A stretch of 64,000 nucleotides of DNA, from assembly GCA_041654415.1 (NCBI GenBank), contig JBAZDL010000003.1, forward strand, positions 151,601 through 215,600, read 5' to 3'. The notes beneath the pieces are model-generated. The model had not been told where the DNA came from and made no database searches. It saw only the letters and a list, made by a program, of their open reading frames with translations. Within the stretch, counting starts at the first letter, position 1. Each line of letters opens with the position of its first letter. Of this stretch, positions 36,360 through 61,004 are shown in pieces. The translations under genes and the position numbers were made by a program. This DNA is from Sulfurovaceae bacterium. Lineage in GTDB: Bacteria; Campylobacterota; Campylobacteria; Campylobacterales; Sulfurovaceae.

Positions 36360-36707
36360 ATGAATATTAAGATACATCGCATTTATGATGATGACGTGCC
36401 GCAGGGATATCGCGTTCTTGTAGATAGGCTGTGGCCGCGCGGCGTGTCAAAGAAGGAAGCTGATCTGGATGCGCACTGGAAAGATTTAGCTCCGAGTAAT
36501 GATCTGCGAAAATGGTTTGATCATGATCCCGATAAATGGGAAGATTTCAGAAAAAAATATCTGAGCGAGCTGAGCACGCATGAAAAAGAAGCAAAAGAAC
36601 ATCTCGAAGAAGCGGGTCAGAAAACTCTCATACTTCTCTATGGTGCAAAAGATAAACAACACAGCCACGCTCACGTCTTGAAAGAATACTTTGAGACGCT
36701 AAACTAA
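36360..36707 (+). CDS. DUF488-family protein
   Basis: RVLVDRLWPRGVSKKEADLDAHWKDLAPSNDLRKWF is the classic DUF488 signature. Confidence 0.8.
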   Translation: MNIKIHRIYDDDVPQGYRVLVDRLWPRGVSKKEADLDAHWKDLAPSNDLRKWFDHDPDKWEDFRKKYLSELSTHEKEAKEHLEEAGQKTLILLYGAKDKQHSHAHVLKEYFETLN

Positions 36708-36712
36708 AAACT

Positions 36713-36765
36713 CGTCATCCCAGCACAAGGCGGGGATCCATTTACCTTGGCAAAAGCAGCCTATC
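36713..36765. repeat. REP-like element type 1 (GTCATCCCAGCACAAGGCGGGGATCC...)
   Basis: Second copy at 37389-37443. Contains the hairpin ATCCC...GGGAT. Confidence 0.6.
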
Positions 36766-36846: not shown

Positions 36847-37242
36847 TCACAACTCGAAAGAGAAGTTTGCAAATACCCCTTCGACACTTTGTGCGGTTTT
36901 ATAGCTGGTACGAAGCACTCTTACGTGTTTGGTCTTCATATCACATACGGCTATGCGGAAGCTTATACCCATTTGCGGCTCAACGATACAGATGATCTTT
37001 CCTTCATACTCTCGTGTGGCATGGATGATGCCCTGCAGCTTGGGAAAAAAGTATTTAGGATAGCTCAGCGGTGTGATCTCTACGATCTTGGTAGTATCGC
37101 GTTGTTTAAGGGTATCTAGTATAAGCTGTGCATCCTCAAAACTCTCAAACTGTACACACCAATTATCAAAAACCTTATTGAAACTCTTTAGATCTTCATC
37201 CAAAAAGCCTCCTGCAAGTGATTGTAAAGCAAAAATTCCCAT
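36847..37242 (-). CDS. hypothetical protein (131 aa)
   Basis: Only substantial ORF between the two REP copies. No domain recognised. Confidence 0.4.
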   Translation of the reverse strand: MGIFALQSLAGGFLDEDLKSFNKVFDNWCVQFESFEDAQLILDTLKQRDTTKIVEITPLSYPKYFFPKLQGIIHATREYEGKIICIVEPQMGISFRIAVCDMKTKHVRVLRTSYKTAQSVEGVFANFSFEL

Positions 37243-37388: not shown

Positions 37389-37515
37389 CCGTCATCCCAG
37401 TACAAGGCGGGGATCCATTTATCCTAGTAAAAGTAACCTATCCTCATTATTGTCATTTCATCGTCATACCGTACTTGATACGGTATCCATAATATCGAAA
37501 TAAACAGCCTATCCA
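37389..37515. repeat. composite REP-like element (type 1 followed by type 2)
   Basis: 37389-37443 matches 36713-36765. 37446-37515 matches 35141-35210. Confidence 0.6.
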
Positions 37516-37599: not shown

Positions 37600-38004
37600 T
37601 TGAAAAAAAATCCGATAAGCCGTTCAGAAAATATGCGCAGAATAAAATCCAAAGATACTTCCATTGAGATTAAACTTCGAAAAGAACTTTGGAAAAAAGG
37701 ATATCGCTATAGAAAAAATTGCAAAGATGTAATTGGAAAGCCGGATATTTGTTTCAAATGTCAGAAAGTAGCTATTTTTTGTGATAGTGAGTTCTGGCAT
37801 GGAAAGTATTTGCATGAAAAAAAGTATATTCCAAAAACCAATGAGGATTATTGGATATCTAAGATCGAACGAAATATTGAACGGGACAAAGAAGTCAATA
37901 CAATGCTCAAAGAGCAAGGCTGGACAGTATTGCGTTTTTGGCAAAAAGATATCGAAAAAAATTTAGAAGCTTGTATTTCAGCTATAGAATATTCTTTTAT
38001 TTAA
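37600..38004 (+). CDS. vsr: very-short-patch repair endonuclease
   Basis: SRSENMRRIKSKDTSIEIKLRKELWKKGYRYR...KPDICF...AIFCDSEFWHG is canonical Vsr. TTG start with an AAAGGA SD. Confidence 0.9.
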   Translation: MKKNPISRSENMRRIKSKDTSIEIKLRKELWKKGYRYRKNCKDVIGKPDICFKCQKVAIFCDSEFWHGKYLHEKKYIPKTNEDYWISKIERNIERDKEVNTMLKEQGWTVLRFWQKDIEKNLEACISAIEYSFI

Positions 38005-38058
38005 GCTGCGTTGCAGCAGGAAAATTGTAAAATTTTGATAATACAAAATGAGGGAATT

Positions 38059-39162
38059 ATGGCAAAAAAATTTACTGCAGTAGATATCTTTAGTGGTGCT
38101 GGGGGGCTAAGTATCGGCGCTAAGATGGCAGGAATTTCACCTGTTATGGCTGTAGAATTTGATCAGTATGCTGCTGAAACTTATAAAACAAATCACAAAG
38201 AAATTGCACGTAATGTATTGCAAAAAGACATCAGGGAAGTAAATCCGTTAGAGCATACCGAGAAAAATCCTTTTATCCTTTTTGGCGGACCGCCATGTCA
38301 AGGCTTTTCCATTGCAAATACAAAAACCAGAAACCTGGATAACCCAAATAACTGGATGTTTAAAGAATATGTAAAATTTTTGAAAGACTTAGAGCCCGAA
38401 TGGTTTTTATTTGAAAATGTTGCCGGCTTCAAATCATTTGGTGACGGATCTTTTGCTAAAGAAGTAGAAGAAGCATTATCAAATCCGCTAGATGATCCAG
38501 ATACTCTTTCATATCAAACCAGTTCTGCACTCTTGGATGCTTCTGACTTTGGTGTGCCTCAAAAAAGAAAACGTTTCTTTATTGTTGGACACAGAAAACA
38601 AAACGGTGGTATAAAATTTAATTTTGACAAACTTCAAAAAAAACCGGTTGTAAGCGTAGGAAAAGCCATTGCCGATCTTCCTGAACTCTCTAATGGGCAG
38701 ATACTTGAAGAATGCCCTTATAGAGGAAAAGCTTTAAGCGATTATGCTAAACTCATGAGAGGTCAACAGCATAAAGCTCTGCAGAATTATGTCACAGCAA
38801 GCAAACCTCATATAGTAGAACGCTATAAAGCGATAGGACAAGGAGAAAACTGGAAAGTTGCACTAGAAAAAGGACTTCTTGACTCATACAGTTCTACCAA
38901 GCATACTCATAGCGGTATCTACAAACGGCTTACTGAAAATGAACCTTCTGTAACTATAGCCAACTATAGAAAAAGTATGCTAATTCATCCATGGGAACAT
39001 CGAGGGCTTTCGCTAAGAGAGGCGGCACGTCTTCAAAGTTTTCCTGATAACTTTGTGTTTAAAGGACCGCACAGCTACCAACAACAACAGGTCGGAAATG
39101 CTGTACCGCCTTTGCTTGCAAAAGCTATATTTCAAAAAATTATAGAGTATACGACCTATTAG
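38059..39162 (+). CDS. dcm: DNA (cytosine-5)-methyltransferase
   Basis: Motif I DIFSGAGGLS, IV GGPPCQGFS, VI FENV, X QVGNAVPP. Start placed at MAKKF after a GAGGGA SD; the track ORF starts at 38011 (TTG). Confidence 0.95.
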   Translation: MAKKFTAVDIFSGAGGLSIGAKMAGISPVMAVEFDQYAAETYKTNHKEIARNVLQKDIREVNPLEHTEKNPFILFGGPPCQGFSIANTKTRNLDNPNNWMFKEYVKFLKDLEPEWFLFENVAGFKSFGDGSFAKEVEEALSNPLDDPDTLSYQTSSALLDASDFGVPQKRKRFFIVGHRKQNGGIKFNFDKLQKKPVVSVGKAIADLPELSNGQILEECPYRGKALSDYAKLMRGQQHKALQNYVTASKPHIVERYKAIGQGENWKVALEKGLLDSYSSTKHTHSGIYKRLTENEPSVTIANYRKSMLIHPWEHRGLSLREAARLQSFPDNFVFKGPHSYQQQQVGNAVPPLLAKAIFQKIIEYTTY

Positions 39163-39470
39163 ATATTTTTAATAGTGCATCATTTCTTGATAGAAAGCAA
39201 CTAATTTTTATTAATCTACTATCTATTAATCCTAATCATTTACTATTTACTAATTACATTTTAATTGATTAATTACATCTTGAAAAAATCTTATAGATTG
39301 ACTTTTCTTTTCTTTGTTTTTGCGTTGACTTGAAACATATATCAATTTGCAAAAATTTTTCCCTATTATGCTAAACAATTACATAGGCATAATCAGCTAG
39401 AGTATATTTTGAATTTTTTTGCTAGATTTTATGGTCCAATTTTTTTACTAATGCCATTTTTGTCTTCTTG

Positions 39471-41534
39471 TCAACTAACTGAAAGGCCAATATCTTCTAG
39501 ATTATGGAGGGCATTAGTAATTATTAATGCTTGCTTTTCTGTAGGAATTTGTTTTGGTATGTTGCACGCTATAGTTATTAAATCAATCTCTAGCGGCGAA
39601 AGTGCATTGTTGTCTATACCAAATTGCTTAATCTTGAACCATTTTCCTTGTTCTGCAATTTTAAAAACAAGTTTTTGTGCTTCTATGCCATTATCAATAC
39701 GCTGAATTTTCTTTGCATCCTTTTGCTCGTCTTTTAGATTCTCTTCTTCGAGCAGCTCCTCTAGAAAAGTATCCGATATTTCAATTGATAAATTATTCTG
39801 TATATTTAGCCAACAGCCTTCTTTCTTTGCCCATTGAGAGATGTTAGCTATACCCGAAGGAGGATTTGTCATTTCGTTGTACACTGCTTTGCTCACCGGT
39901 TTAAGCAGTTCTTGGGTTGCTTCAGAAACAGTCTGTCTATTCCAAACAGCTATAAAATCAAAGAACTTATTTGCTTTTTTAACTATGTAGTCTATATATG
40001 CGATAGAATAAGCCACCGTTTGCGCACGATAGCCTCCGTCGTACCAGTAGGCATCTGATATAAGTTTCTCTGTTGTTTTGAAAATAATTGCTTTTGCTAC
40101 AGCGGTTTTAAAATAGAGTTCATTGTATGCGCTATTGCTTTTTTCCCATTTCTTTCCTATTTCTTTAGCATATTCAATAAAACTGTATTGGGCGCCTCTG
40201 GCAACAATGTGGGGAATACCTTCCCATACATTTTCAAACTTGGACAGATCTGTTTTTGCAATAAGCTGTGCTTTAGGATATTCAAACTGGAACTTTTTTC
40301 TCTCTGCGGGTGTTTTGTGTGCTTGCGCATCCTGATACTGTCCTCTGGCACGTTCATAAAACCATTTTGTCTGTTTATGCCCTCCGCCTACTGCTGGTGC
40401 ATAAATTCGTCTTGAAAAGTCTTCCATGCGTATATGAAACGGATGGTTTGAAAAAAAGTCTGCAGCATTGACCTTGTTCTGCGTATTCGCATATTCCGAT
40501 ATCTTTGGCACCAAATCTTCTGCTTCTTCGGGTTTGACAATCGTAAGTTTTACTTGAACAAAAAGGTGATCAAGTTTAGCTTTGTCTTTTCTCGTAGCAC
40601 TGTAAATTGAAGCTGTAGTCTGCCCTCCGTTTACTATTTGTAAATTTCTAAGACTTTTCAAGCGCAAACCGTTTTCTGACGGCTCAACCTCAATATTTTC
40701 AGCTGTAGTAGTCAATCCGTTGTTATACGCAAAAAATTTCTCAGGCTGATTGATTATTGTGTTGCGAAGGCCTTGATTGACTTTTCCTCTTGCCTGCAGA
40801 AAAGTTCTTACGTTCTGTTCCAGCAGTCTGGCACCATATTTTCCATAGAGCAATGCTAATAAAGTTCCGGGGACAACCAAAAGGTATGACTGGTATTCAT
40901 CTGTATTGAGATGCGCAGGAAGACAATAGACAGGCTTAGATGCAATTTCATCAAAATTGATGAGAATATCTTCTTTTTTTTGATTGGAAGCATCCATTCT
41001 AAAAAGTCTTGATATATCCCATATATTATAAAAGAAGCTGACATTATTGCTTTGTTTTGACGGTATAGCTTCTACACGCTCACTCAATATTTTATTGCTG
41101 AGCAGGTAATATTTAACCGTAAAGATATCAGACTTGTTTTTATATATCTGATATGCCAGATCATATACGGCTGTTGATTCCTCAAGCTTTGTATAATATG
41201 TTTTTGAAAATGCTTTGTCAAAAAAACTTTCTATACGTTTGAATGCTTGATTTACTTCAGTTTGAGTCAGACTTTTGCTGTCAAGATCGGAAGAAAATAC
41301 TGATATGAACAGATTCAAAACTCCGTCATCTTCATTATAGCTGTACCCGTCTATTTTGACACCTGTTTCACTCCAGTGGCACAGCTCCAGCTCATTGTCT
41401 ATTTCGCCAGATCCGAGAAGCTCCTTTGCATACAACTCGATAAAAGATGACTCATAAAAGTTTTCTCCTGACTGGGCTTCTGCAAATACATCTTGCAGAA
41501 AAGCTTCTCTGAATTGTTCCAATTGCTCATTCAT
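39471..41534 (-). CDS. AIPR-family (abortive-infection phage resistance) protein
   Basis: 687 aa. LLEQNVRTFLQARGKVNQGLRNTI...FFAYNNGLTTTAE is the AIPR signature. Confidence 0.85.
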   Translation of the reverse strand: MNEQLEQFREAFLQDVFAEAQSGENFYESSFIELYAKELLGSGEIDNELELCHWSETGVKIDGYSYNEDDGVLNLFISVFSSDLDSKSLTQTEVNQAFKRIESFFDKAFSKTYYTKLEESTAVYDLAYQIYKNKSDIFTVKYYLLSNKILSERVEAIPSKQSNNVSFFYNIWDISRLFRMDASNQKKEDILINFDEIASKPVYCLPAHLNTDEYQSYLLVVPGTLLALLYGKYGARLLEQNVRTFLQARGKVNQGLRNTIINQPEKFFAYNNGLTTTAENIEVEPSENGLRLKSLRNLQIVNGGQTTASIYSATRKDKAKLDHLFVQVKLTIVKPEEAEDLVPKISEYANTQNKVNAADFFSNHPFHIRMEDFSRRIYAPAVGGGHKQTKWFYERARGQYQDAQAHKTPAERKKFQFEYPKAQLIAKTDLSKFENVWEGIPHIVARGAQYSFIEYAKEIGKKWEKSNSAYNELYFKTAVAKAIIFKTTEKLISDAYWYDGGYRAQTVAYSIAYIDYIVKKANKFFDFIAVWNRQTVSEATQELLKPVSKAVYNEMTNPPSGIANISQWAKKEGCWLNIQNNLSIEISDTFLEELLEEENLKDEQKDAKKIQRIDNGIEAQKLVFKIAEQGKWFKIKQFGIDNNALSPLEIDLITIACNIPKQIPTEKQALIITNALHNLEDIGLSVS

Positions 41535-42528
41535 TTCTCAGCCTTTTTTCAAAATCTGCAATAGAGACCTCAAAAGGTTTGCACTCTTTGAGTTCTATTT
41601 TATACTGCACCGATATAACACCGTTTGGGATATCATCAGCCTTGAGCTTTGGAAAGTTGTCTTTGACTTCAAATATAGACTCTTTAGTGACAACATAATG
41701 TTTTTCATCATACTCAGGAAGATCCATATATCCGGCTTCAGACAGCAAGTTTTCAAAAACATCCAAGTCGCCTGAGTCAAAAAACATATGCTTGATCTCA
41801 TTGATTAGGCTGTAAAGACTGATTGTATTAGGCATATTGCTTGGGGCACCATTGAGTGTTACAACATACAAATAACACTCTGCTGCACTGCAATTGAGCT
41901 GATCGATTGAACTGATTTGGATATACGGTGCAGCTGTTCCTTGTTTTGCTTTTACTTCTATAGCCGCATTCCCTATGCCGAAATCCTGCTGCTCGCCATA
42001 CGGTCCTTTCCAGAAAGAGAGCGATTCATTTGCGGAACAATATGGCAGAAGATGATATTTCAAAAAGCACAATTCTCCAATCAGCCCTTGCTGCTCTTGT
42101 TCTGTCAAAAGCTTTTTGCCGAATTTCCTAAACAGTTTTTGCCACCGCTGCAATCGGCTGTGAATGATAGAAAGCATTGTCTTTTCCGTCTGTGTTTCAA
42201 CCGTAGTCTGCAATAGATCCATACACAGAATGTAGAAAATATCCCAGTCACTCGTCTCTTTGAGCACTAAAGTCAACCTATAGCCCTTTGATGTCTGATA
42301 CTGCTGTATATCAATACCGGAGAGAGTTATTTTTTTTGATGGCCAGTCTTCAAGACTGCTGTGTTCAGCAATAAAAAGATACTCATTGTTTTTTCCAAGT
42401 GCCCAAAAAAAATCAAACTTGTTTTTTGGATCTATACGTACAGAATCTATACCTTTCCTAAGACGCGGGATGGAAACCCATGGATTATTCTTCATCATTT
42501 TCAAACTCTTCATAATAGTTTTTGACAT
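41527..42528 (-). CDS. PD-(D/E)XK-motif protein (DUF4420-like)
   Basis: 333 aa with QDFGIGNAAIEVKAK (D...ExK). Overlaps both neighbouring genes. Confidence 0.7.
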   Translation of the reverse strand: MSKTIMKSLKMMKNNPWVSIPRLRKGIDSVRIDPKNKFDFFWALGKNNEYLFIAEHSSLEDWPSKKITLSGIDIQQYQTSKGYRLTLVLKETSDWDIFYILCMDLLQTTVETQTEKTMLSIIHSRLQRWQKLFRKFGKKLLTEQEQQGLIGELCFLKYHLLPYCSANESLSFWKGPYGEQQDFGIGNAAIEVKAKQGTAAPYIQISSIDQLNCSAAECYLYVVTLNGAPSNMPNTISLYSLINEIKHMFFDSGDLDVFENLLSEAGYMDLPEYDEKHYVVTKESIFEVKDNFPKLKADDIPNGVISVQYKIELKECKPFEVSIADFEKRLRNE

Positions 42529-45259
42529 AGGTAGTATTCACTGCATATTCAACCGGCCGTATATGGATATCTGTTCTTTTCGGAAAACTGATACCGTATG
42601 CCGGAAGATTGCTCTCAACCAGTGTTGATTCATCATTTATATCACTATAAGCATTAAGAATATGTAGCATCAGCAATGGCTTTTTTCTTGCTCTTCTCAG
42701 GAATCTTCCGGGTATCCTGCCAATTTTAAGCTCTTTTGCCAAAAGTTCTTGTGCTTTATCTGCATTGCCGTCTTCGATTGCTTTGTCTGCTTTGCTTTGA
42801 TTCTCCTTGTCCCATCTCTGAAGTGCTTCAGTAATTTCTTCAGCAGACATTCCTGCACGTTCTGCGTCATTTGTCCCCGCAGCAACTCTTCTTCTGCTGC
42901 TTATTTCAATATAGTTATCTAATCTGTACTGATCTTTCGGATCACATGAACGCTTTTGTATACCGATATCAATCTCTCCGTCAACTCCTATAAATCTATT
43001 ATGTGCACTCTTGGGACTGACAAATACTATATCCCATTGAGGGAAATACTCTGATGCTTGTTCCAAATAGCTCAATATAGGTTTTGTCTGAGTCATTTGT
43101 GAACGAGGATGATTATAGTAGTGATTTATGAAGTATGCAATAACTGATGCATCTACATTGGTCCATATATAGTTGTTTTCACTGTTGTATTCTGCTTTTT
43201 TCCTTTTTTGAAGCCGTAATGCAAGATCTTTGAAAAGGGCAAGATTGTTTAGTCTGTGACTCGGATCCAAATCTACAACATATGTTTCAATCAAACGGCC
43301 GCTCAAATCAGTCCTATGAAGCAGTGTTTCCGAAGCTCTCATTTTGTTTCTGGCAGTAATCAACAATGACCCAGGATGTGTTCTGACTTTTAAACCAAAG
43401 TCTTTAGGAGTCAGGTTTGCCTTGAACATTTCATTGAATTCCTCTCTTAGCTCTTCGACAGCTTCAGAAATATGGGTAAAATAGCTTTCTGTCATCGGTG
43501 TCAGATATATTCTGCACAGATCAGCAAATCCATCCCGATAGCCAAACCATCTTCCCATTTGCATTAATGTATCATACATAGAGGTACTGCGGTAAAAATA
43601 ACTGGTTGCTAACCCTTCTAATGTCAATCCTCTGGAGAGCTTGTCTCCTCCTACAGCAATTACATTCAATCCGTTTTTGTAAGCTTTATAATCAAGGCTG
43701 TCCGGCGAATCACCGTTAATCAGCATAACCTGCATTGAAGCAGCAGCTTCCAGAAGTTTTTCCTGAATATTATTCCAATCTGAATAATCTGTTTTAAAAT
43801 CAGTCTCCCATACAGTATGCAAAGCTTTCATGTAAGAATTTTTCAAGGCCTCAGAATTATTCAGCTTGTAAGAATATCTTACTCCCTTTTCTATATTTTG
43901 CCTGAACTGCACAACCAAACTGTAAACTTCCTTCTGCACATCCTTAAATCTTGAAAGATGTATCAGCATTGAATGATGTTTGTTTGTCTGACCTCGCAAT
44001 AAACGTATTGTTTTTGACACAATATGTGAATATATAGCTTTTTCAAGGCTTTTTGGCAATTCATTTACTTCCTGGTCTTTTTTATGTTTAAGCGGGATAA
44101 TATCTTCTATATTTTCATCACTTCCTATAGTTCTTACAATATCCAACTCTTCAGGTTCGCCCCCGAAAATTTTCTCCGAACCGATATAATTGCTCGGAGG
44201 ATCAAGGCTGATAATAAAATCTCTCGGAAACAGATCATCTCCGTACATACTATCCTCTGTTGCAGGATCAATAAAGATATTGGCAAATGGAGTTGCGGTA
44301 TAGGCAAGATAGCATTTCCTGTGAAAAAGCTTTAAAATTTCTCTGATTCTCTTATTGATTGCAGTGGGATCTTTTTCGGGATCATTTGTATTGACTGATG
44401 CGTGATCTGCTTCATCATCAATCATTAGCAGCGGAAGATTTGAAATTGTGCCATCTATATTTGAATTGTTTCTCTGAAGCCAATCTCTTAGCTTTTGAAG
44501 TACTCTTGCATTTTTCTTGACAACTAATATTGTCGCATCTTCATATTTTTGAACTCTAAAATTACGCTTGTCATCAAAGTCATTATACTTATCTGTAAAT
44601 GAGTATGGTATTTTTTCATGATTGAAACCCCCTACGCCTATCAGGGATTCAAAAAAGTCTACATCTGTTTTCTTGGTACTGTCTTGTCCAATATATCCTT
44701 CATCTACACGCTCCTGCGTTTGGGAACGCAAACTTTCTTGCATCCCGGCCAAAATGATTATTAATTTGTATCCGACATCAGAAGCTTTGTTAATTACGCC
44801 AATGAAATTTGCAGTTTTCCCGGACTGCACATAACCGACAACCATACCCCTTCTGTACCATTTTCCCTTCTTATACGGATCTTCAAGCCTTCCGACTATT
44901 TTATCGGTTACATTATCAACAGAGGAAACAACCGGCGGAGCAAATCCATTTTGAAGCAGAAGTTTTTCATAGCGGTTCCAAAAATATGGGTCAAATTCTT
45001 CTTCTGACTTTTTTTCATGCAGCCAGGGCTCAAAGTCTTGATCATCTACTATTAAGGTGCCCTCCTCCATAGTCAGTCCAAATTGGTGTTCTATTTTTTT
45101 GGCAATATTTTCTATATCATCAGAGGACAATTCAACCAAAATAGTTGGATCACTTGCTTCATATTCAATCAATTTTCTGATAATTTCAGGAGTTTTTTTA
45201 TCAGGTTTTTTTGATAACCGATAAATAACATTATTGGTTATTTCTTCAATTGCTTCCAT
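42485..45259 (-). CDS. Z1-domain P-loop NTPase (helicase-like)
   Basis: 924 aa. GYVQSGKTANFIGVI Walker A, LLMIDDEADHAS Walker B-like, typical Z1 architecture. Confidence 0.85.
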   Translation of the reverse strand: MEAIEEITNNVIYRLSKKPDKKTPEIIRKLIEYEASDPTILVELSSDDIENIAKKIEHQFGLTMEEGTLIVDDQDFEPWLHEKKSEEEFDPYFWNRYEKLLLQNGFAPPVVSSVDNVTDKIVGRLEDPYKKGKWYRRGMVVGYVQSGKTANFIGVINKASDVGYKLIIILAGMQESLRSQTQERVDEGYIGQDSTKKTDVDFFESLIGVGGFNHEKIPYSFTDKYNDFDDKRNFRVQKYEDATILVVKKNARVLQKLRDWLQRNNSNIDGTISNLPLLMIDDEADHASVNTNDPEKDPTAINKRIREILKLFHRKCYLAYTATPFANIFIDPATEDSMYGDDLFPRDFIISLDPPSNYIGSEKIFGGEPEELDIVRTIGSDENIEDIIPLKHKKDQEVNELPKSLEKAIYSHIVSKTIRLLRGQTNKHHSMLIHLSRFKDVQKEVYSLVVQFRQNIEKGVRYSYKLNNSEALKNSYMKALHTVWETDFKTDYSDWNNIQEKLLEAAASMQVMLINGDSPDSLDYKAYKNGLNVIAVGGDKLSRGLTLEGLATSYFYRSTSMYDTLMQMGRWFGYRDGFADLCRIYLTPMTESYFTHISEAVEELREEFNEMFKANLTPKDFGLKVRTHPGSLLITARNKMRASETLLHRTDLSGRLIETYVVDLDPSHRLNNLALFKDLALRLQKRKKAEYNSENNYIWTNVDASVIAYFINHYYNHPRSQMTQTKPILSYLEQASEYFPQWDIVFVSPKSAHNRFIGVDGEIDIGIQKRSCDPKDQYRLDNYIEISSRRRVAAGTNDAERAGMSAEEITEALQRWDKENQSKADKAIEDGNADKAQELLAKELKIGRIPGRFLRRARKKPLLMLHILNAYSDINDESTLVESNLPAYGISFPKRTDIHIRPVEYAVNTTYVKNYYEEFENDEE

Positions 45260-46727
45260 CTCTCATTCCCTCTCTTTTGATGTATGTTTCGCAAAAATCT
45301 TCATATTTGCTAAATGGTTCAGTTTGCCTAAACTTTTCCAAAATTTCTGTCTTATCATATCCCATACTGTACATAAGATCCCAATACCTGCGAGCATGCT
45401 CATTTAGCTGCTCTTCAGTCACGCTATCTTGCCTAACATTTTCAGGTTCTGTAGCCAAATCAACAAAAATAGTATCAAGCGGTAATGTGCTTTCTGTAAT
45501 AGACAAAATTTCTTTCACTTTCTTTTGTGTTTCTTCATCTAAAGAAGAAAGCAAAGAAGCAATTAATGGGTTTTTGTAGTTTATTCTGAAACTTTTTTGA
45601 TTGTGCTGATGATATTCGCTCCATATAGGAACATACCCCAGTCTGCTTATGCGTGCCCCTCGGCTTTTATATACCCTTGTTGAAGATGCCGTAATTCTTT
45701 CGATTGTTCTTTTTAGCTCTGCTCTGATTGATTCTGGCGGTGTTGCTCTTGATTTTTTTACATCAATTGACCATGCAAAATCTTCAGAATTGGGCAGATC
45801 TATTTTTACTCTGGCAAGCTTTGTCGCTTCTGACTGTTTTGAAAGATTAAACCATGTACCATGAATCATAAGCCGACTGTTTCTGTATACATAGAACCCT
45901 TGTGACTTCACATAGCCGTCTCTGCCTGCAAGTCGTTTGTACTGTTCTGGAGTTGTTTTATTTAAATGAGGAAGAAGATAAGCCTGAATTTTTATTTTTC
46001 CTATTGTTTCTTCCGGAAAATGTTTTCCGGCCCCTTCAAACGGATCAAATGGTGCTATCGAATCGCCATTAATATAAATTGATAGTCTCTTTAGTCCGGC
46101 TTCGCCCGAAAGATATCGATGAAACACCAATCCTAAATGTTCTCTTGCTTCATCAATTTTTTCCCAAAAGATCTCTTCCGGATTCCGTTTGCTTTGCGTA
46201 TCAACAAGCCTGTACAAGTCTTTCCAAAGCACTAATGTGCCGAAATTGTTTAATAATTTATATTCCGGTATATTATTAATCTCATATTCATTAAGTATTT
46301 CGATTTCCCATTTTTCACTTTTTGACACATGTTCTAAGTCCCAGCATCGACCTGTATCTTTTTGATTCTTCCTGGATACTACAATTAATTTGCCTGCCTG
46401 TGAAAAAGAAGCTGTTTTCAGACCAAGTCCAAATCTTCCCAAGTCGCCTTTATTGCGAGATAATACTGGATCAAGCGAGCCCAGCTGCATAGCTTTATTT
46501 AATGTTGACTCATCCATGCCTTCGCCATTATCAATGACAGCTAGATAACTTTCATGTGTATCAAAATGAGCAATAATTTGAATTTCTGTGGCATTAGCAG
46601 CAATACTGTTGTCAATTATATCAGCAATAGCAGTTTCTAGTGAATAGCCTATGTCTCTTAGTGCATAGATCAAATTTTTGGGATTTGGAAGAGCAGGTAT
46701 ATACCTATGATTAATTTTATTATGCAT
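45246..46727 (-). CDS. GHKL (MutL/MORC-like, HATPase_c_3) ATPase
   Basis: N-box AIADIIDNSIAANA, G1 box IDNGEGMD, G2-like GRFGLGLKT. Strong SD AGGAGGGGGG upstream. Confidence 0.85.
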   Translation of the reverse strand: MHNKINHRYIPALPNPKNLIYALRDIGYSLETAIADIIDNSIAANATEIQIIAHFDTHESYLAVIDNGEGMDESTLNKAMQLGSLDPVLSRNKGDLGRFGLGLKTASFSQAGKLIVVSRKNQKDTGRCWDLEHVSKSEKWEIEILNEYEINNIPEYKLLNNFGTLVLWKDLYRLVDTQSKRNPEEIFWEKIDEAREHLGLVFHRYLSGEAGLKRLSIYINGDSIAPFDPFEGAGKHFPEETIGKIKIQAYLLPHLNKTTPEQYKRLAGRDGYVKSQGFYVYRNSRLMIHGTWFNLSKQSEATKLARVKIDLPNSEDFAWSIDVKKSRATPPESIRAELKRTIERITASSTRVYKSRGARISRLGYVPIWSEYHQHNQKSFRINYKNPLIASLLSSLDEETQKKVKEILSITESTLPLDTIFVDLATEPENVRQDSVTEEQLNEHARRYWDLMYSMGYDKTEILEKFRQTEPFSKYEDFCETYIKREGMRDGSN

Positions 46728-46865
46728 AAATCTTCCACCCCCCTCCTACTATCAACGATTGATAAATTATATAGTTTTCTCTTTAAAGATTCTTTTAATT
46801 TTAAAACATAAATGAAATTAATAGCAATGGGCTACTTTTTTGCCAATTAAACACCGTTGATTTGG

Positions 46866-47236
46866 CTATGCAGTCTCATATAGCATATTCATAACCAGTT
46901 TGATAATAATATCTTTTTGTTCAGAAGCCGAAGTAGCTACAAGCAAGGCAAGTGATACTAAAGCATTATCGTTGATCTTTGGCTCTCCATTTGGTTTATA
47001 AAGCACGTCGTTTTTATCTCTCTATTCCCTTCTTTTTGAACTGTTTCCATTTTGGAAATAGTTGCCTTGGAATCTAACTCTTCACTTTCAATAATATTTT
47101 TGATATGTTTTGAAATAGCCGGAACCTTTACATTAAAAAGTTCTGCCATTTGCTTTTGTGTAATCCAAATACTCTCATTTGCTACTTTGGTAGATAGTTC
47201 TATCTCGCCGTTCTTAAATATTACAATATCACTCAT
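46866..47236 (-). pseudogene. RhuM-family gene remnant (N-terminal part, frameshifted and truncated)
   Basis: MSDIVIFKNGEIELSTKVANESIWITQKQMAELF... matches the RhuM-like N-terminus. Family-like sequence (…VQKEGNREIK/NDVLY…) continues only after a frameshift and then stops. Confidence 0.5.
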
Positions 47237-47383
47237 GATTCAAATCCTAAGCATTTTAAATATTCTATCCATTTAACCGTTATAAATGGTTAAAGCTCAC
47301 ACCTCTGCCGCTCCAACGAAGCCAAAGAGTACATGCTGTATCATCGCCTATTTTTGGGACAAATGAGAACGAGGCTGCTTTTT
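47220..47383. repeat. repeat A, copy 1 (leader upstream of the RhuM-like start)
   Basis: Near-identical to 48872-49031 (offset 1652 bp, a few substitutions and a 2-nt indel). Includes the first 17 nt of the ORF and the palindrome CCATTTAACCGTTATAAATGG. Confidence 0.8.
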
Positions 47384-47386
47384 AAT

Positions 47387-47998
47387 TTATTTTTCTAATC
47401 CATTTAGTATAATTTTTTCTAGTGCTTCACAGTCAGCAAATTGGACACACTCAATAGAAGCTTCGATATATTGTTTGGGCTGTACGGTAGAATAGTTTAT
47501 AAATTTATAGCCGTTGTATGAAACAATCATATCAAAAAACATACGGGTAACCCTTCCATTAAGTTCATAAAAAGGATGTAATGCGATGAGTTCACATTGA
47601 TAGTAGGCTAGTCTCTTGGCAAACTTTTCTTTTGGCTCATGTTCATAATCTTTGAGATAATTCTCTTTTTTCAACTCTTCAAATATTTTTTGAGATGAAC
47701 TCTCTATAAAAGCACCTTGGCAAAACCTACTATTACCTTTTGCCATATTGAAATCCCTATAAATTCCTGCCCACTCATAGAGAGATTCAAAAGTTCTTTT
47801 ATGTAAGTTTTTAAAATAATTTTCATCAAAAAGAGTACCTTCCTCTATTTCATCAAAAAAAATAAGATATGCTTCCTCTAAAAGTTCCTTTTCTATCTCT
47901 CGCAGCATGTCACTGTCATCAATCTTGAATTTATTTACAGGTATATCGGTGCCATTGATATAAAAAGAGTTATCTTTTAACTGATACTTTGATGCCAT
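47387..47998 (-). CDS. Fic-family protein (putative AMPylase toxin)
   Basis: Fic motif HPFYELNGRVTR versus the consensus HxFx(D/E)GNGRxxR, with one G->L change. 203 aa. Confidence 0.85.
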   Translation of the reverse strand: MASKYQLKDNSFYINGTDIPVNKFKIDDSDMLREIEKELLEEAYLIFFDEIEEGTLFDENYFKNLHKRTFESLYEWAGIYRDFNMAKGNSRFCQGAFIESSSQKIFEELKKENYLKDYEHEPKEKFAKRLAYYQCELIALHPFYELNGRVTRMFFDMIVSYNGYKFINYSTVQPKQYIEASIECVQFADCEALEKIILNGLEK

Positions 47999-48122
47999 AT
48001 TTTTCCCTTAGCATTTTTGCTTTTTTAACTATTTGACTATCTGCTTCTTTATAGCCCTCTATGGCTTGGGTTGTTTTTATAGTTCGCTTAAGGATTGTTC
48101 TATTAATAGGATTTTTACTCAT
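47970..48122 (-). CDS. small antitoxin-like ORF (50 aa) carrying the Fic inhibitory motif; not in ORF track
   Basis: My own translation is MSKNPINRTILKRTIKTTQAIEGYKEADSQIVKKAKMLREKYGIKVSVKR. TQAIEG fits [S/T]xxxE[G/N]. AGGA SD 8 nt upstream. The 3' end overlaps the fic start by 29 nt. Confidence 0.65.
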   Translation of the reverse strand: MSKNPINRTILKRTIKTTQAIEGYKEADSQIVKKAKMLREKYGIKVSVKR

Positions 48123-48317
48123 TTTTTCATTCCTTTAAATCTTGTTATTCTAGTAATTAGTTCGCTCATCATATCATTTTTTAGAGTATTACTCTTTCTA
48201 TTCGTAAAAATTTTTAAACTCGCCGCATGCTGCTACAACTTTATAAAAATATTATATCCAATATATAGCTATAGCCGATCCAAACCGATTAATAAAGATG
48301 TATGATTAATGGAATAT

Positions 48318-48376
48318 TGTATCGAAATTTCGTTAGTTAGTAAATGATTTGATGATAAAAATTATGTGATTGTATT
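48318..48376. repeat. repeat B, copy 1
   Basis: 59 bp with 1 mismatch to 49058-49116 (offset 740 bp). Contains the palindrome CGAAATTTCG. Supplies the stop and last ~13 codons of the truncated RhuM-like ORF. Confidence 0.8.
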
Positions 48377-48888
48377 ATATGCAAATTAAGGACAGCCCAG
48401 CTTTTGGCATAATTGCTTATGATTTCTGCAAAACCTTTGGCTTCGTTAGTGCTTAGCTCTTTGGCATTTAAACCTTGCTGTATCAAATGTAATATCTGGG
48501 TAAGTTCATTTAGTTTTTGTTGTTGTAGGCGGTCTTTATTTAGTGCATAGCCTTTGATAAGATAATCTTTAAGCACTTTATTTGCCCAGATGCGAAACTG
48601 TGTCCCTTGTTTTGATTTAACCCTGTAGCCTACCGAGATAATAACATCCAAACTATAGTGTTGAACATCATAAACTTTGCCATCTTGTGCAGTATGTGCA
48701 AATTTTGCACATACTGAATTTTTATCTAATTCTTGTTCTTTAAAAATATTATTTATATGTTTTGTGATTACACTTCTTTCTCTGTCAAATAGTAATTCCA
48801 TTTGTTTTTGACTTAACCAAATAGTCTCATTTTCGACTGTTGCATTTAGTGCAACATTTCCATTCTCATAGATTACAATATCACTCAT
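48337..48888 (-). CDS. RhuM-family protein, C-terminally truncated (183 aa)
   Basis: IWLSQKQMELLF...HYSLDVIISVGYRVKSKQGTQFRIWANKVLKDYLIKGY is the RhuM signature. Homology ends near residue 170, where repeat B begins. Confidence 0.75.
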   Translation of the reverse strand: MSDIVIYENGNVALNATVENETIWLSQKQMELLFDRERSVITKHINNIFKEQELDKNSVCAKFAHTAQDGKVYDVQHYSLDVIISVGYRVKSKQGTQFRIWANKVLKDYLIKGYALNKDRLQQQKLNELTQILHLIQQGLNAKELSTNEAKGFAEIISNYAKSWAVLNLHIIQSHNFYHQIIY

Positions 48889-49031
48889 GATTCAAATCCT
48901 AAGCATTTTAAATATTCTATCCATTTAACCGTTATAAATGGTTAAAGCTCACCTCTGCCACTCCCACGAAGCCAAAGAGTACATGCTGTATCATCGCCTA
49001 TTTTTGGGACAAATAAGAACGAGGCTACTTT
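48872..49031. repeat. repeat A, copy 2
   Basis: See copy 1. Confidence 0.8.
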
Positions 49032-49057
49032 ATAGAAAATTTTTATGAAACAGAAGA

Positions 49058-49116
49058 TGTATCGAAATTTCGTTAGTTAGTAAATGATTTGATGATAAAA
49101 ATTGTGTGATTGTATT
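49058..49116. repeat. repeat B, copy 2
   Basis: See copy 1. It is separated from repeat A copy 2 by only 26 bp. Confidence 0.8.
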
Positions 49117-51150: not shown

Positions 51151-52281
51151 TTGAACACAAGTGTTAAAATCAAAACATTTTCAAATTCGCAAATTTTAGC
51201 GAAACAACAATATATAACATCTCGAAAAAAATTTGGAGAAAATGAAATTTCAATCATATTCAACAACAACATAAATGTTCAAATTGAACTATCTGCTGAG
51301 CAAAAAAAAGAGCGATCGCAGTTGCAAAAGAATTTGCATATTTACAAAAAAAGATACAAAGAAGCGAGAGAAAAAAACAAAGAAAAATCAATGATTACGA
51401 ATTTGCTAAAAATTGACGACATCAATAATCAATTATCAAAAACAAGTTCACGAGCAAACAGAACAAACAAAAAAGAATTTGTAGAATTCACACTATCTTT
51501 GACAAATTTTGATAGTTGGAAAAATAAGCTTGATAGACAAAAATTTGAAAAAATCGTAAATGACTTTATGAATGAAAAATTCAAAGAGATAGAAAAAGTC
51601 TCAGCAGCTGCACATTACGACCAGCATAGTCCGCATGTTCATTTTTTATTGCGTATGAATTATATAACAAGCTGGAGTGAGTTTTGCAGAGAGAAATATC
51701 AAGTTAAGGACACAAGAGAGGCTTATTCGCGAATAAATCATGAGTTTCATAATTATATGAATATGCAATTTGAATTAAATCAAATGCAAAAAAACAGAAA
51801 ATACACATCTTTAAAGGAGTACAAAAAATATGGCAATAGATACCGAAGAAATACGAGCAACGAGGGGAATCAACTGGATCACCAAATGTATCTGCATCGA
51901 CTGCAAACACAGCCTGTGGACAGAAGAGTTGCTCACAGATATCGACATGAAAAGCGAAGCGACGAAGAAAATGGAAGAGATAATAAATCAATACAAAACA
52001 CAAAAACAGAGATTATTCGCAGAGCAAATCTCCAAAGAAGAAACAGTGAACGAATTGAACAAAATTTCTACGAGCGATTCAAGCTACTATCAAGTGAAAT
52101 CGACAACTTGCGAATGCATGTCGACAGCAAAAATAACATACAAGGAGAACCGGGACAAGCGACAAATTTTAATGCTGAAAACTTGCGAATTATTCGAGAA
52201 GAAAGTGTGACGAATCTTGTTCACGATGATAAAAAAGATGCAGAGCAACTCCCAAAAGTTTTTAACCGCAAAAGGCAATAA
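51151..52281 (+). CDS. MobV (Mob_Pre)-like relaxase
   Basis: AAHYDQHSPHVHFLL fits the MobV HxDExxPHxH motif (compare HLDEKTPHMH in pMV158 MobM, from memory). The N-terminal HxxR motif is not evident. TTG start. Confidence 0.5.
   Translation: MNTSVKIKTFSNSQILAKQQYITSRKKFGENEISIIFNNNINVQIELSAEQKKERSQLQKNLHIYKKRYKEAREKNKEKSMITNLLKIDDINNQLSKTSSRANRTNKKEFVEFTLSLTNFDSWKNKLDRQKFEKIVNDFMNEKFKEIEKVSAAAHYDQHSPHVHFLLRMNYITSWSEFCREKYQVKDTREAYSRINHEFHNYMNMQFELNQMQKNRKYTSLKEYKKYGNRYRRNTSNEGNQLDHQMYLHRLQTQPVDRRVAHRYRHEKRSDEENGRDNKSIQNTKTEIIRRANLQRRNSERIEQNFYERFKLLSSEIDNLRMHVDSKNNIQGEPGQATNFNAENLRIIREESVTNLVHDDKKDAEQLPKVFNRKRQ
51830..52210 (+). CDS. nested +1-frame ORF (126 aa) inside the relaxase 3' half, with its own SD
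   Basis: AAGGAG lies 9 nt upstream of the ATG at 51830. Both frames stay open for 381 nt. Confidence 0.3.
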   Translation: MAIDTEEIRATRGINWITKCICIDCKHSLWTEELLTDIDMKSEATKKMEEIINQYKTQKQRLFAEQISKEETVNELNKISTSDSSYYQVKSTTCECMSTAKITYKENRDKRQILMLKTCELFEKKV

Positions 52282-59386: not shown

Positions 59387-61004
59387 GAACGCAACAGCCG
59401 AGAAATTGAGAGGTGGCTTTTACACACCAGAGCCAATTGCTGCATTTATTTTAAAATGGGGTATTAATGGCAGTTCGGACTATGAAATATTAGAGCCGAG
59501 TTGCGGAGATGGTGTGTTTTTGGAGCAATTGAAAAAGAATAATCATGAGTTTAAATCAGTTACAGCCATTGAGTTTGACAAGACAGAAGTCGAAAAAGCA
59601 GCCAAAATAAAACTGGAAGGGAAAACTGTAATCAGTAGCGATTTTCATTTGTATTGTAATGAAACAACAGAAAAGTTTGATCTAGTCGTTGGAAATCCAC
59701 CATATATACGTTTCCAATACTTTGATAAAGAACAACAAAACGAAGCTGATAAAATCTTTAAAAAAGCGGGTTTGAAATACTCAAAATTAACCAATGCCTG
59801 GGTATCATTTGTTGTGGGCTCAAGTTTGTTGCTTAAAGAAAAAGGGAAAATTGGATTTGTAATTCCTGCGGAATTACTACAGGTTTCCTATGCTAAACAA
59901 TTACGGGAATTTTTGGCTTATTCATATAATAAAATCAACATTATTTCCTTTAAAAAGTTAGTTTTCCCTGACATTCAACAAGAAGTTATTTTATTGCTTT
60001 GTGAAAGAAATGGGAGTGATTCACATTTGATTGAACATCTAGAATTACAAGATGCTTCCGACCTTGAAAAATTGGATGTAAACAAATTAAAAAGTCCGAG
60101 CAAAAAAATTGACACACAAGCTAATAAGTGGACTTATTATTTCTTGGAACAAGAAGAGATAGACTTTTTAGAGAAATTGAAACATAATACTAAGCTAAAC
60201 TCGATAAAAAAATATGCACGCAATGAAGTAGGCATTACAACTGGTAAAAACAAATTTTTTACCGTGAACGAGTCTATTGTAAATGAGTATAATTTAAATG
60301 ATTACTCAAAACCATTAATGGGGCGAAGTATACAATTAAACGGATTAAATTTTTCCGAATTAGACTGGATTGAAAATATTAAACAAGATGCAAGAGCCTT
60401 TTTGGTTGTTTTTCCAGATAAAGCAACTGTTGCTAAAAATAATGAAAAAGCCTATGAGTATATAAAGTTTGGTGAAGAACAAGGGTATCATTTGGGGTAC
60501 AAATGTAGAATTAGAGGTAATGAGTGGCAAATTGTACCTTCTTTAAAAATTTCAGAAATATTTTTCACAAGGCAAATTCATTTATACCCAAAAATGGTAC
60601 TGAATGAAGCAAAGGCATATACAACTGATACTGTACATAGAGTATATTTAAAAGAAAACGTGAATGATAAAGCCTTTGTGGTTAGTTTTTACAATTCTAT
60701 TTCTTTAGCCTTTTCCGAAATTGTAGGTCGTAGTTATGGTGGTGGTGTTTTGGAGTTGATGCCAAACGAAGTGGAAGAAATATTAATTCCCTATCAAAGT
60801 AAAAACGTAGATTTATTTCCAATCATAGACCAAATGATGCGTGAGAAAAAAAGCATTGATGAAATTTTGAAAATAACCAACAAGCAGATCCTTAAAGATG
60901 GATATGGGTTTACAGATAAAGAAATAAGACTTGCAGATAGTATTTGGAAAAAACTTTCTAAACGTCGTTTAAACAGAGGTAAAGGTAAATCCAAGATAGT
61001 CTAG
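59373..61004 (+). CDS. companion N6-adenine DNA methyltransferase with TaqI-like specificity domain
   Basis: GGFYTPEPIA, ILEPSCGDGVFL, VVGNPPYI, GITTGKNKFF, YGGGVLELMPNEVEEILIP. Overlaps the upstream gene by 14 nt. Confidence 0.85.
   Translation: MKLIKNATAEKLRGGFYTPEPIAAFILKWGINGSSDYEILEPSCGDGVFLEQLKKNNHEFKSVTAIEFDKTEVEKAAKIKLEGKTVISSDFHLYCNETTEKFDLVVGNPPYIRFQYFDKEQQNEADKIFKKAGLKYSKLTNAWVSFVVGSSLLLKEKGKIGFVIPAELLQVSYAKQLREFLAYSYNKINIISFKKLVFPDIQQEVILLLCERNGSDSHLIEHLELQDASDLEKLDVNKLKSPSKKIDTQANKWTYYFLEQEEIDFLEKLKHNTKLNSIKKYARNEVGITTGKNKFFTVNESIVNEYNLNDYSKPLMGRSIQLNGLNFSELDWIENIKQDARAFLVVFPDKATVAKNNEKAYEYIKFGEEQGYHLGYKCRIRGNEWQIVPSLKISEIFFTRQIHLYPKMVLNEAKAYTTDTVHRVYLKENVNDKAFVVSFYNSISLAFSEIVGRSYGGGVLELMPNEVEEILIPYQSKNVDLFPIIDQMMREKKSIDEILKITNKQILKDGYGFTDKEIRLADSIWKKLSKRRLNRGKGKSKIV

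Follow-up and report, generated by a model that had tools for sequence, protein, structure and literature searches.

Does a cytosine methylase with a Vsr partner belong functionally to the four-gene operon that it faces, and which of the known systems does such an ensemble represent? The question is raised by a stretch of 64,000 nucleotides from a Sulfurovaceae bacterium (assembly GCA_041654415.1, contig JBAZDL010000003.1, positions 151,601 to 215,600 of the forward strand), referred to here in its whole length as the window, in which a vsr-dcm pair converges on a compact operon at positions 37600 to 46727. A sequence-only reading had taken this locus for a Mza-like, methylation-linked defence system composed of a GHKL ATPase, a Z1 protein, a PD-(D/E)XK nuclease and an AIPR protein. 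The analysis described here indicates that the locus is probably an intact, horizontally mobile and ATP-dependent defence cassette of the restriction-modification (R-M) type, belonging to a methylase-linked branch of MORC/DEAD-Z1/DUF4420/AIPR operons. Its identification at the family level from the sequence is close to certain, and we infer the order of the mechanistic events, self-protection by 5-methylcytosine (5mC), and the roles of the MORC and AIPR proteins.

All six open reading frames (ORFs) were found in the ORF list where they had been placed, with the operon converging on vsr and dcm, and a check against Pfam profile hidden Markov models supported each of the six domain calls at E-values of 1e-24 to 1e-101, far beyond chance. 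Moreover, every motif that had been quoted for these proteins, including methyltransferase motifs I, IV, VI, and X, was present in the translations. On the plus strand, vsr (37600..38004, 134 aa, TTG start) encodes a very-short-patch repair (T:G mismatch) endonuclease, which matches Pfam Vsr at 9.5e-25 and NCBIfam TIGR00632 at 146.8 bits (cut-off 97.85) and contains a DSEFWHG motif. The adjoining dcm gene (38059..39162, plus strand, 367 aa from its probable ATG) encodes a C5 cytosine DNA methyltransferase (MTase) that matches Pfam DNA_methylase at 1.2e-64 across the full profile, TIGR00675 at 199.8 bits (cut-off 100.65), and PADLOC MTase_II at 1.6e-107, and that contains motifs I (FSGAGG), IV PCQ (GPPCQGFS), VI (ENV), and X (GNAVPP).

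The four minus-strand genes are named here after their Mza relatives, and their products are referred to as MzaB to MzaE or, collectively, BCDE. The mzaB-like gene (45246..46727, 493 aa) encodes a protein with the GHKL ATP-binding motifs IADIIDNSIAA (DNSIAA), DNGEGM, and GRFGLGLK, matching Pfam HATPase_c_3 at 1.8e-32 and PADLOC MzaB at 6.6e-78. This protein had been described as MutL-like, a description that has to be replaced: it is a prokaryotic MORC-type GHKL+S5 ATPase, of which the stretch GFYVYRNSRLM fits the MORC S5 signature GhXhhpXXRhl, with M instead of L/I/V at the final position. Among PDB sequences it is matched best by MORC2, MORC3, and MORC4 (2e-5 to 2e-3), and the MutL models of NCBIfam match it weakly. 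The mzaC-like gene (42485..45259, 924 aa) encodes a DEAD-Z1 superfamily II (SF2) helicase-like motor that matches Pfam Z1 at 1.1e-78, ResIII weakly, PADLOC MzaC at 2.7e-150, and the REBASE-type Helicase_II family at 6.2e-48. Toliusis et al. 2018 characterized the DEAD-Z1 features of H.CglI as a Walker A motif in which Q replaces G, a DEAD box, and QxxR spacing in motif VI. In MzaC the Walker A variant VQSGKT (within GYVQSGKT), DEAD at residues 282-285, TATPFAN, and motif VI, Q567-M-G-R570 within DTLMQMGRWFG (residues 563-573), are invariant in 20 homologues, so that the DEAD-Z1 features of H.CglI are all found in this protein.

The third gene of the operon, mzaD-like (41527..42528, 333 aa, probably 323 aa from an ATG at 42498), encodes a DUF4420 protein of the PD-(D/E)XK nuclease type (Pfam DUF4420 1.3e-74; PADLOC MzaD 1.7e-21), in which the quoted nuclease motif DFGIGNAAIEVKAK is present in the translation and residues E152, D182, and E191-V-K193 (E-D-ExK) are invariant in the alignment; D182 aligns with D187 and P293 with P297 of E. 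coli MzaD. Finally, the mzaE-like gene (39471..41534, 687 aa) encodes AIPR_N (5e-40) and AIPR (4.8e-101) domains with the signature NVRTFL...NNGLT, followed by a C-terminal helical extension of ~100 aa, and its product is matched by PADLOC MzaE at 1.5e-84 and by AbiU at 1.2e-26. The extension (residues ~583-687, window 39471-39780) is predicted to be helical with high confidence and lies outside the PADLOC and NCBIfam MzaE models. MzaE has a median length of 691 aa in the methylase-linked branch versus 598 aa in E. coli, which corresponds to a C-terminus that is ~90 aa longer.

The name Mza goes back, according to papers citing that study, to mzaABCDE in the 2020 screen of Gao et al., in agreement with the sequence-only reading. 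Canonical loci were reached via a homologue on a Thalassospira plasmid and subsequently on E. coli chromosomes, and no enterobacterial Mza was found in plasmid searches. Canonical MzaA, the gene of which precedes those of MzaB-E, belongs to the sigma-70 family and measures ~680-750 aa (RefSeq annotation; Miller et al. 2022). The possibility that MzaA is a methylase, raised by a Listeria preprint that describes a methyltransferase as 'part of mzaABCDE', was rejected on the basis of these two sources. No cytosine methylase and no Vsr were found within 9 kb of the two E. coli mzaABCDE loci, which lie beside yecA, and on the Thalassospira plasmid MzaA-E are followed by a separate 'restriction endonuclease' and a cytosine methylase. 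MzaA queries from E. coli and Thalassospira gave no tblastn match at E<=1 anywhere in the window, and MzaA was absent from the 82 branch loci compared (81 fetched loci and the window), the sole match being a short sigma-like stretch ~8 kb upstream in one of them (L020). Judged by these searches, MzaA and Dcm/Vsr exclude one another across the loci examined.

Identities between the window and E. coli proteins are 33% for MzaB, 35% for MzaC, 24% for MzaD, and 31% for MzaE. The NCBIfam scores, relative to the equivalog cut-offs in bits, are 322/850, 584/1500, 127/420, and 352/1050 for MzaB, MzaC, MzaD, and MzaE, respectively, that is, 30-40% of the cut-offs; the window proteins are therefore relatives of MzaB-E, not orthologues in NCBI's sense. 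The designation Mza-like is thus borne out by the PADLOC matches to MzaB-E and by homology, and has to be narrowed on account of the missing MzaA and the scores under the equivalog cut-offs: as far as sequence comparison goes, the locus is a methylase-linked sister branch, and not Mza proper.

The link between operon and methylase was addressed by comparative genomics of 80 related loci, one genome per species, in which homologues of the six window proteins were located by tblastn. The family is large: two protein searches each returned at least 8000 candidates, and all scored candidates were significant. Hosts include Campylobacterota, Alpha-, Beta-, and Gammaproteobacteria, Desulfobacterota, and Chloroflexota, as well as Firmicutes, Cyanobacteria, Planctomycetota, and Armatimonadota. 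Complete B-C-D-E operons in fixed order were found in 72 of the 80 loci, and the other eight are incomplete, several of them at contig ends. Among the 50 loci having at least 4 kb on both flanks, a C5-MTase was present within 5 kb in 49 and Vsr within 5 kb in 39 (missing in 22%), and 64 of the 72 complete loci had a C5-MTase within 1 kb.

The arrangement of these genes varies. Most commonly, Dcm lies upstream on the same strand with Vsr divergent or co-directional, whereas the window layout, with dcm and vsr downstream and convergent, occurs in two scored relatives, one of which (L001) is 60% identical. The window Dcm is 88% identical to the MTase of the latter locus and 69% identical to that of Sulfurovum sp. 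NBC37-1 (L081), of which the Z1 protein is 77% identical to that of the window. In NBC37-1, Vsr immediately precedes the MORC gene in the same orientation, and the methylase is found 4 kb downstream, separated from the operon by an HNH gene and by an insert of three unrelated genes. Both Dcm and Vsr precede the operon on its own strand in 13 further loci. The variable position and orientation of dcm and vsr argue for selection on co-occurrence rather than on co-transcription. Such constant co-occurrence with variable layout, seen as it is across many phyla, is the signature of a functional link, and thereby lends strong comparative support to the association with the adjacent Dcm and Vsr that had been predicted from the window itself. 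The chromosomal context of the NBC37-1 orthologue (thrS-infC-ilvD) is unlike that of the window, which is in keeping with horizontal mobility, and the position of the window locus in a defence island near a relaxase gene argues for a role in defence.

In the NBC37-1 locus (L081 15777-21099), the AIPR gene is followed by the HNH gene, and the insert between the operon and the C5-methylase consists of genes encoding an unknown protein, an ORC/Cdc6-like ATPase, and an HD-CE protein. This three-gene block may be a second system that is embedded in the locus or that shares its methylase.

On the preferred reading as an R-M-type cassette, Dcm would methylate cytosine-5 at its recognition site and thereby mark host DNA, and Vsr would repair the T:G mismatches that result from deamination of Dcm 5mC sites, T:G mismatch repair after 5mC deamination being what Vsr enzymes associated with C5-methylases are established to do. 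The restriction complex would consist of the four translationally coupled proteins. Within this complex, MzaC is predicted by homology to H.CglI to be a DEAD-Z1 double-stranded DNA translocase, which would move from unmethylated sites at the expense of ATP, and MzaD would be the PD-(D/E)XK nuclease that cuts the DNA, as suggested by its conserved catalytic residues and by the in vitro cleavage reported for E. coli MzaD. By analogy with MORC and MutL, the MORC-type ATPase MzaB may dimerise on ATP, clamp or loop the DNA, and license cleavage, and MzaE could, as a guess, serve as a scaffold or sensor by which activation is tied to methylation status. The sequence-only reading knew of no biochemical mechanism for a system of this kind, which holds for the complex as a whole, for which no mechanism is established in the literature searched, and is out of date for its parts, since the DEAD-Z1 motor has been dissected in H.CglI and the nuclease activity of E. 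coli MzaD has been reported. According to a 2022 preprint, E. coli mzaABCDE confers 1e3- to 1e4-fold protection against T4(C) and against T4 carrying hydroxymethylcytosine, T4(hmC), and ~10-fold protection against glucosyl-hmC T4, without growth arrest at any multiplicity of infection (MOI); purified MzaD cleaves DNA in vitro, and the substitutions D187A and P297A weaken the effect.

Several observations weigh against this reading. The E. coli system works without a linked methylase, which implies that the BCDE machine has no intrinsic need of one for self-tolerance, and no experiment on any methylase-linked member was found in the literature searched. A Pfam scan recognised no sequence- or methylation-reading domain in the BCDE proteins. 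Moreover, close BCDE relatives have exchanged their MTases: similarity, when normalised, is 0.89 for MzaC versus 0.37 for Dcm in one pair of loci (L051/L055) and 0.78 versus 0.06 in another (L027/L034), and similarity of Dcm correlates with that of BCDE at 0.23-0.28, compared with 0.57-0.72 for each of MzaB, MzaD, and MzaE with MzaC. Such independent exchange of the MTase is hard to reconcile with a fixed specificity subunit within BCDE. The connection of MzaC to H.CglI is furthermore weak at the structural level. Single sequences of MzaC, MzaD, and MzaE gave no matches in the PDB, nor did 20-sequence profiles of MzaC and MzaE. The AlphaFold model of MzaC (predicted local distance difference test, pLDDT, 70; predicted template modelling score, pTM, 0.41) gave weak Foldseek matches to DEAD-box helicases, to the translocating EcoR124I HsdR, and to the C-terminal domain of H.CglI, with best E-values of 0.014-0.04; for the C-terminal domain versus 6f1s (H.CglI), the probability was 0.99 and the target-normalised template modelling (TM) score 0.58, at an E-value of 0.04 and in a model of pLDDT 70. 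These fold matches are consistent with the sequence evidence and are no independent proof of it.

The exchange of methylases suggests a different view of specificity, which we put forward tentatively and consider rather unlikely. BCDE may carry no sequence specificity of its own, as suggested by the swapping of unrelated MTase families beside nearly identical BCDE operons, and the methylase could then be a detachable recognition subunit, or else AIPR might house a generic reader of 5mC or of unmethylated DNA. The AIPR protein resembles no solved fold: its AlphaFold model (MzaE, pLDDT 80) gave no PDB fold match (best E-value 1.6), with only scattered low-probability matches to PD-(D/E)XK nucleases. 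In addition, Vsr might be an integral, MORC-stimulated nicking component that mirrors the MutL-Vsr pair, and not simply an accessory of repair, as suggested by the Sulfurovum NBC37-1 locus, where it immediately precedes the MORC gene and is co-directional with it. If this view were true, the operon would amount to a restriction chassis of plug-and-play design, in which targets are licensed in a new way, and the replacement of Dcm/Vsr by a sigma-like MzaA in enterobacteria would represent a switch to methylation-free control of the same machine. A determinant of specificity within BCDE was sought through partial correlations with MTase similarity, which at 0.03-0.15 were uninformative. In one natural MTase swap, sliding identity indicated that MzaB in its N-terminal half and MzaE at its ends diverge along with the MTase and that MzaC and MzaD do not, a pattern that is explained equally well by recombination at the operon ends.

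Among the rival explanations, the one that survives best, though we rate it as unlikely, is that BCDE is a methylation-independent anti-phage system and that dcm-vsr, located in the same island, is either an orphan methylase or left over from a different R-M system. The protection conferred by E. coli mzaABCDE without a linked methylase speaks for it, as does the Thalassospira plasmid, where the 'restriction endonuclease' and cytosine methylase could be an R-M pair of their own; in the window, moreover, dcm and vsr are on the strand opposite to the BCDE operon and are not co-transcribed with it, and the MTase is exchanged independently of BCDE in relatives. This explanation does not account for the proximity of a C5-MTase in so many loci (49 of 50 at up to 5 kb, 64 of 72 at up to 1 kb), which is far too consistent for chance, nor for the loss of MzaA exactly where Dcm is present, and no separate restriction gene was found beside the window dcm. 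The near-universal co-occurrence, together with the lack of growth arrest in E. coli, provides the main arguments against the rivals as a group.

A second explanation assigns the locus to abortive infection, in which the AIPR protein, a relative of AbiU, would kill or arrest the cell and the ATPases and nuclease would serve as sensors. The AIPR family is named after abortive-infection proteins, and the PADLOC AbiU model matches MzaE as given above; nevertheless, we regard this as very unlikely, as E. coli cells carrying mzaABCDE do not arrest at any MOI, purified MzaD cuts phage DNA, tight methylase linkage is a hallmark of restriction, and AIPR is common in R-M operons (Iyer et al. 2008).

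Still more improbable is a module for DNA repair or epigenetic maintenance, in which MORC would partner Vsr as MutL does in very-short-patch repair, and in which the substrate of the helicase and nuclease would be damage from 5mC deamination instead of foreign DNA. In E. coli, Vsr is stimulated by MutL, a parallel drawn by Iyer et al. 2008, who also allow for occasional recruitment to repair; the gene order in Sulfurovum NBC37-1, and the 13 further loci with Dcm and Vsr both upstream on the operon strand, would also suit such a module. Against it, the family is patchy, horizontally mobile, and located in defence islands, its closest tested relative is an anti-phage system, and Vsr is missing from 22% of the adequately flanked loci. 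Finally, modification-dependent (Type IV-like) restriction of foreign methylated or hydroxymethylated DNA is scarcely credible, for although E. coli Mza restricts T4 carrying hmC, it restricts unmodified T4(C) equally and glucosyl-hmC T4 less, an enzyme of this kind beside an active C5-methylase would attack its own host, and a Pfam scan of the locus proteins detected no 5mC-reader domain such as SRA or MBD.

The target of Dcm was sought by comparison with the PDB, in which the matches span the catalytic core alone and none extends over the target-recognition domain. GGCC is the most under-represented tetranucleotide in the window (48 sites versus ~101 expected, z = -7.5 in a maximal-order Markov model), and CATG and GATC are likewise depleted, which suggests that these sites are, or have been, under restriction pressure. 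The depletion of GGCC was not taken as a sign of the target of this Dcm, the target-recognition domain of which matches no PDB methylase of known specificity. The MTases of the window clade measure 360-380 aa, and those of most relatives 500-580 aa.

With respect to the organisation of the operon, the Shine-Dalgarno sequence AGGAGGGGGG is present on the minus strand at 46747-46738, 10 nt 5' of the mzaB-like ATG at 46727, as was established by direct reading and in agreement with the sequence-only reading. A candidate sigma-70-like promoter (TTGCTA, 18 nt, TAAAAT; 46798..46827, minus strand) is a consensus match only, at 9 of 12 positions, and is a weak candidate, since such sites are no more numerous upstream of mzaB than in shuffled sequence. 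The overlaps of 14, 44, and 8 nt that had been reported between successive genes are all present on direct reading of the junctions: the mzaB-mzaC overlap of 14 nt reads ATGGAAGCAATTGA and the mzaD-mzaE overlap of 8 nt reads ATGAATGA, and the 44 nt shared by the longest mzaC and mzaD ORFs is probably an artefact of choosing the longest ORF. Very probably, mzaD starts at the ATG at 42498, which reduces the overlap with mzaC to 14 nt and yields a protein of 323 aa; this start is favoured because the Sulfurovum NBC37-1 orthologue has the same length. Translational coupling of mzaC and mzaD stands whichever mzaD start applies. Analogously, the longest dcm ORF (38011-39162, plus strand) begins with TTG at 38011, and the actual start is very probably the ATG at 38059, which is preceded by GAGGGA. 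An AT-rich convergent spacer of 308 bp (39163..39470) separates the dcm stop from the mzaE-like stop, and a sequence scan of this spacer found no terminator-like hairpin and only short AT-rich direct repeats.

The locus lies at the left end of a defence island, next to a mobile element, and searches for tRNAs and Rfam RNAs found none that could mark an integration site. On the 5' side of mzaB, a 230-bp spacer is followed by a RhuM-like fragment, and two such N-terminal fragments (46958-47236, 92 aa, and 48337-48888, 183 aa; PADLOC candidate families PDC-S05/S23) flank a Fic/DOC gene (47387-47998) that matches PDC-S04 at 3.6e-50 and SoFic at only 1e-4. A direct repeat of ~260 nt (47135-47394 and 48787-49044, 84-91% identical) and a 59-nt repeat (48318-48376 and 49058-49116, 98% identical) point to local duplication or rearrangement at 46958-49116. 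The shorter RhuM gene, the fragment of which directly adjoins the operon start, may have been truncated by insertion of the Mza-like operon. Further to the right, where G+C falls to 26-32% beyond 49 kb, the window contains a gene for a relaxase of the MobA/VirD2 type at 51151-52281. Beyond it lie genes for a Type IIG restriction-methylase fusion that is Eco57I/MmeI-like (56405-59386, 993 aa), for a stand-alone M.Eco57I-like methylase (59373-61004), and for an AAA_15+TOPRIM nuclease of the OLD family (61020-63050), which could be GajA-like or a class 1 OLD protein. Immediately left of vsr, a 53-nt direct repeat (36713-36765 and 37390-37442, 87% identical, with two copies only in the window) brackets an orphan ORF of 131 aa (36847-37242, minus strand) that has no family match; as an att-like scar, this repeat could mark the left boundary of an inserted cassette. 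Left of the cassette lies a gene for a DUF488 protein (36360-36707), which belongs to the inactive N3 subclade by Pfam (5.6e-33) and has a weak PADLOC match to PDC-M45C (6e-5).

As a typical representative of a family that had already been described (in 2008, 2020, and 2022), the window locus is not novel in kind. Its interest derives from that family, which is very large, extends over many bacterial phyla, and includes prokaryotic relatives of the eukaryotic MORC chromatin ATPases, and of which, in the literature searched, only the methylase-less enterobacterial branch has been tested. The dichotomy between Dcm/Vsr and MzaA, and the methylase swaps beside a BCDE core, sharpen the question on what basis self and non-self are distinguished and whether the methylase is the source of specificity. 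Being compact, intact, and low in G+C, the locus is a reasonable cloning target.

Of the systems to which the locus can be compared, canonical mzaABCDE of E. coli and Salmonella ('mza' in PADLOC, 'Gao_Mza' in DefenseFinder) has homologous MzaB-E proteins encoded in the same order by overlapping genes, and the catalytic D of its MzaD is conserved in the window protein. It differs in that the E. coli loci contain MzaA, whereas the window lacks MzaA and has Dcm and Vsr, and in that the window MzaE is ~90 aa longer than that of E. coli. The NTP-dependent Type II systems CglI and NgoAVII are likewise C5-methylase-linked and possess a DEAD-Z1 motor with Walker A (Q) and QxxR motifs. BceSIV reportedly belongs to the same group. 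The H-subunit of CglI hydrolyses ~170 ATP per second and translocates along double-stranded DNA from an unmethylated site, cleavage following collision with another enzyme, and the R-subunit combines a PLD nuclease and a B3 DNA-reading domain in one protein. In the window, by contrast, the partners of the motor are a PD-(D/E)XK protein, a MORC ATPase, and AIPR, without a recognisable DNA-reading domain (a domain scan of the locus found no PLD nuclease or B3-like recognition domain), and MzaC is ~300 aa longer than H.CglI. For NgoAVII, the comparison includes a tblastn match at 3e-27 on an N. gonorrhoeae record, in an unannotated stretch that is probably the NgoAVII locus. The GHKL+S5 ATPase module of MzaB is shared with eukaryotic MORC and with MutL, and MzaB differs from the former in lacking CW, coiled-coil, and chromatin-reader domains and in being encoded in a four-gene operon, and from the latter in lacking a C-terminal endonuclease. 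With the AbiU/AIPR abortive infection proteins, the locus shares the AIPR domain.

The closest descriptions are those of Iyer, Abhiman & Aravind 2008 (Biol Direct 3:8) and Miller et al. 2022 (Nat Commun 13:5731), so that the occurrence of this neighbourhood beside a cytosine methylase had indeed been noted before, as the sequence-only reading held. The former described a 'third type' of prokaryotic MORC operon, in which a superfamily II (SFII) helicase with a C-terminal domain containing DThhQXuRhFG ('Z1') is combined with an uncharacterised restriction-fold E-D-ExK protein, often alongside cytosine methylases, Vsr, and AIPR; Sulfurovum sp. is among the species aligned, and this operon type was interpreted as an R-M system. 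Miller et al. 2022 described a putative defence system with a core of Z1 (~925 aa), PD-(D/E)XK, and cytosine methylase, of which 'type II' consists of this core with AIPR and MORC, and reported ~20% identity to mzaBCDE with mzaA, 'a sigma factor', mostly missing; a similar island in Corynebacterium was described by Puigbo et al. 2017. The class 3 operons of Iyer et al. 2008 and the type II systems of Miller et al. 2022 share with the window the MORC GHKL+S5 protein, the Z1 SFII helicase, the E-D-ExK (DUF4420) protein, AIPR, DCM, and VSR, and differ from it in nothing substantive. The window thus represents a new instance of this system, from a Sulfurovaceae metagenome-assembled genome, in which it is distinguished by the less common convergent dcm/vsr arrangement and by an MTase of the short family.

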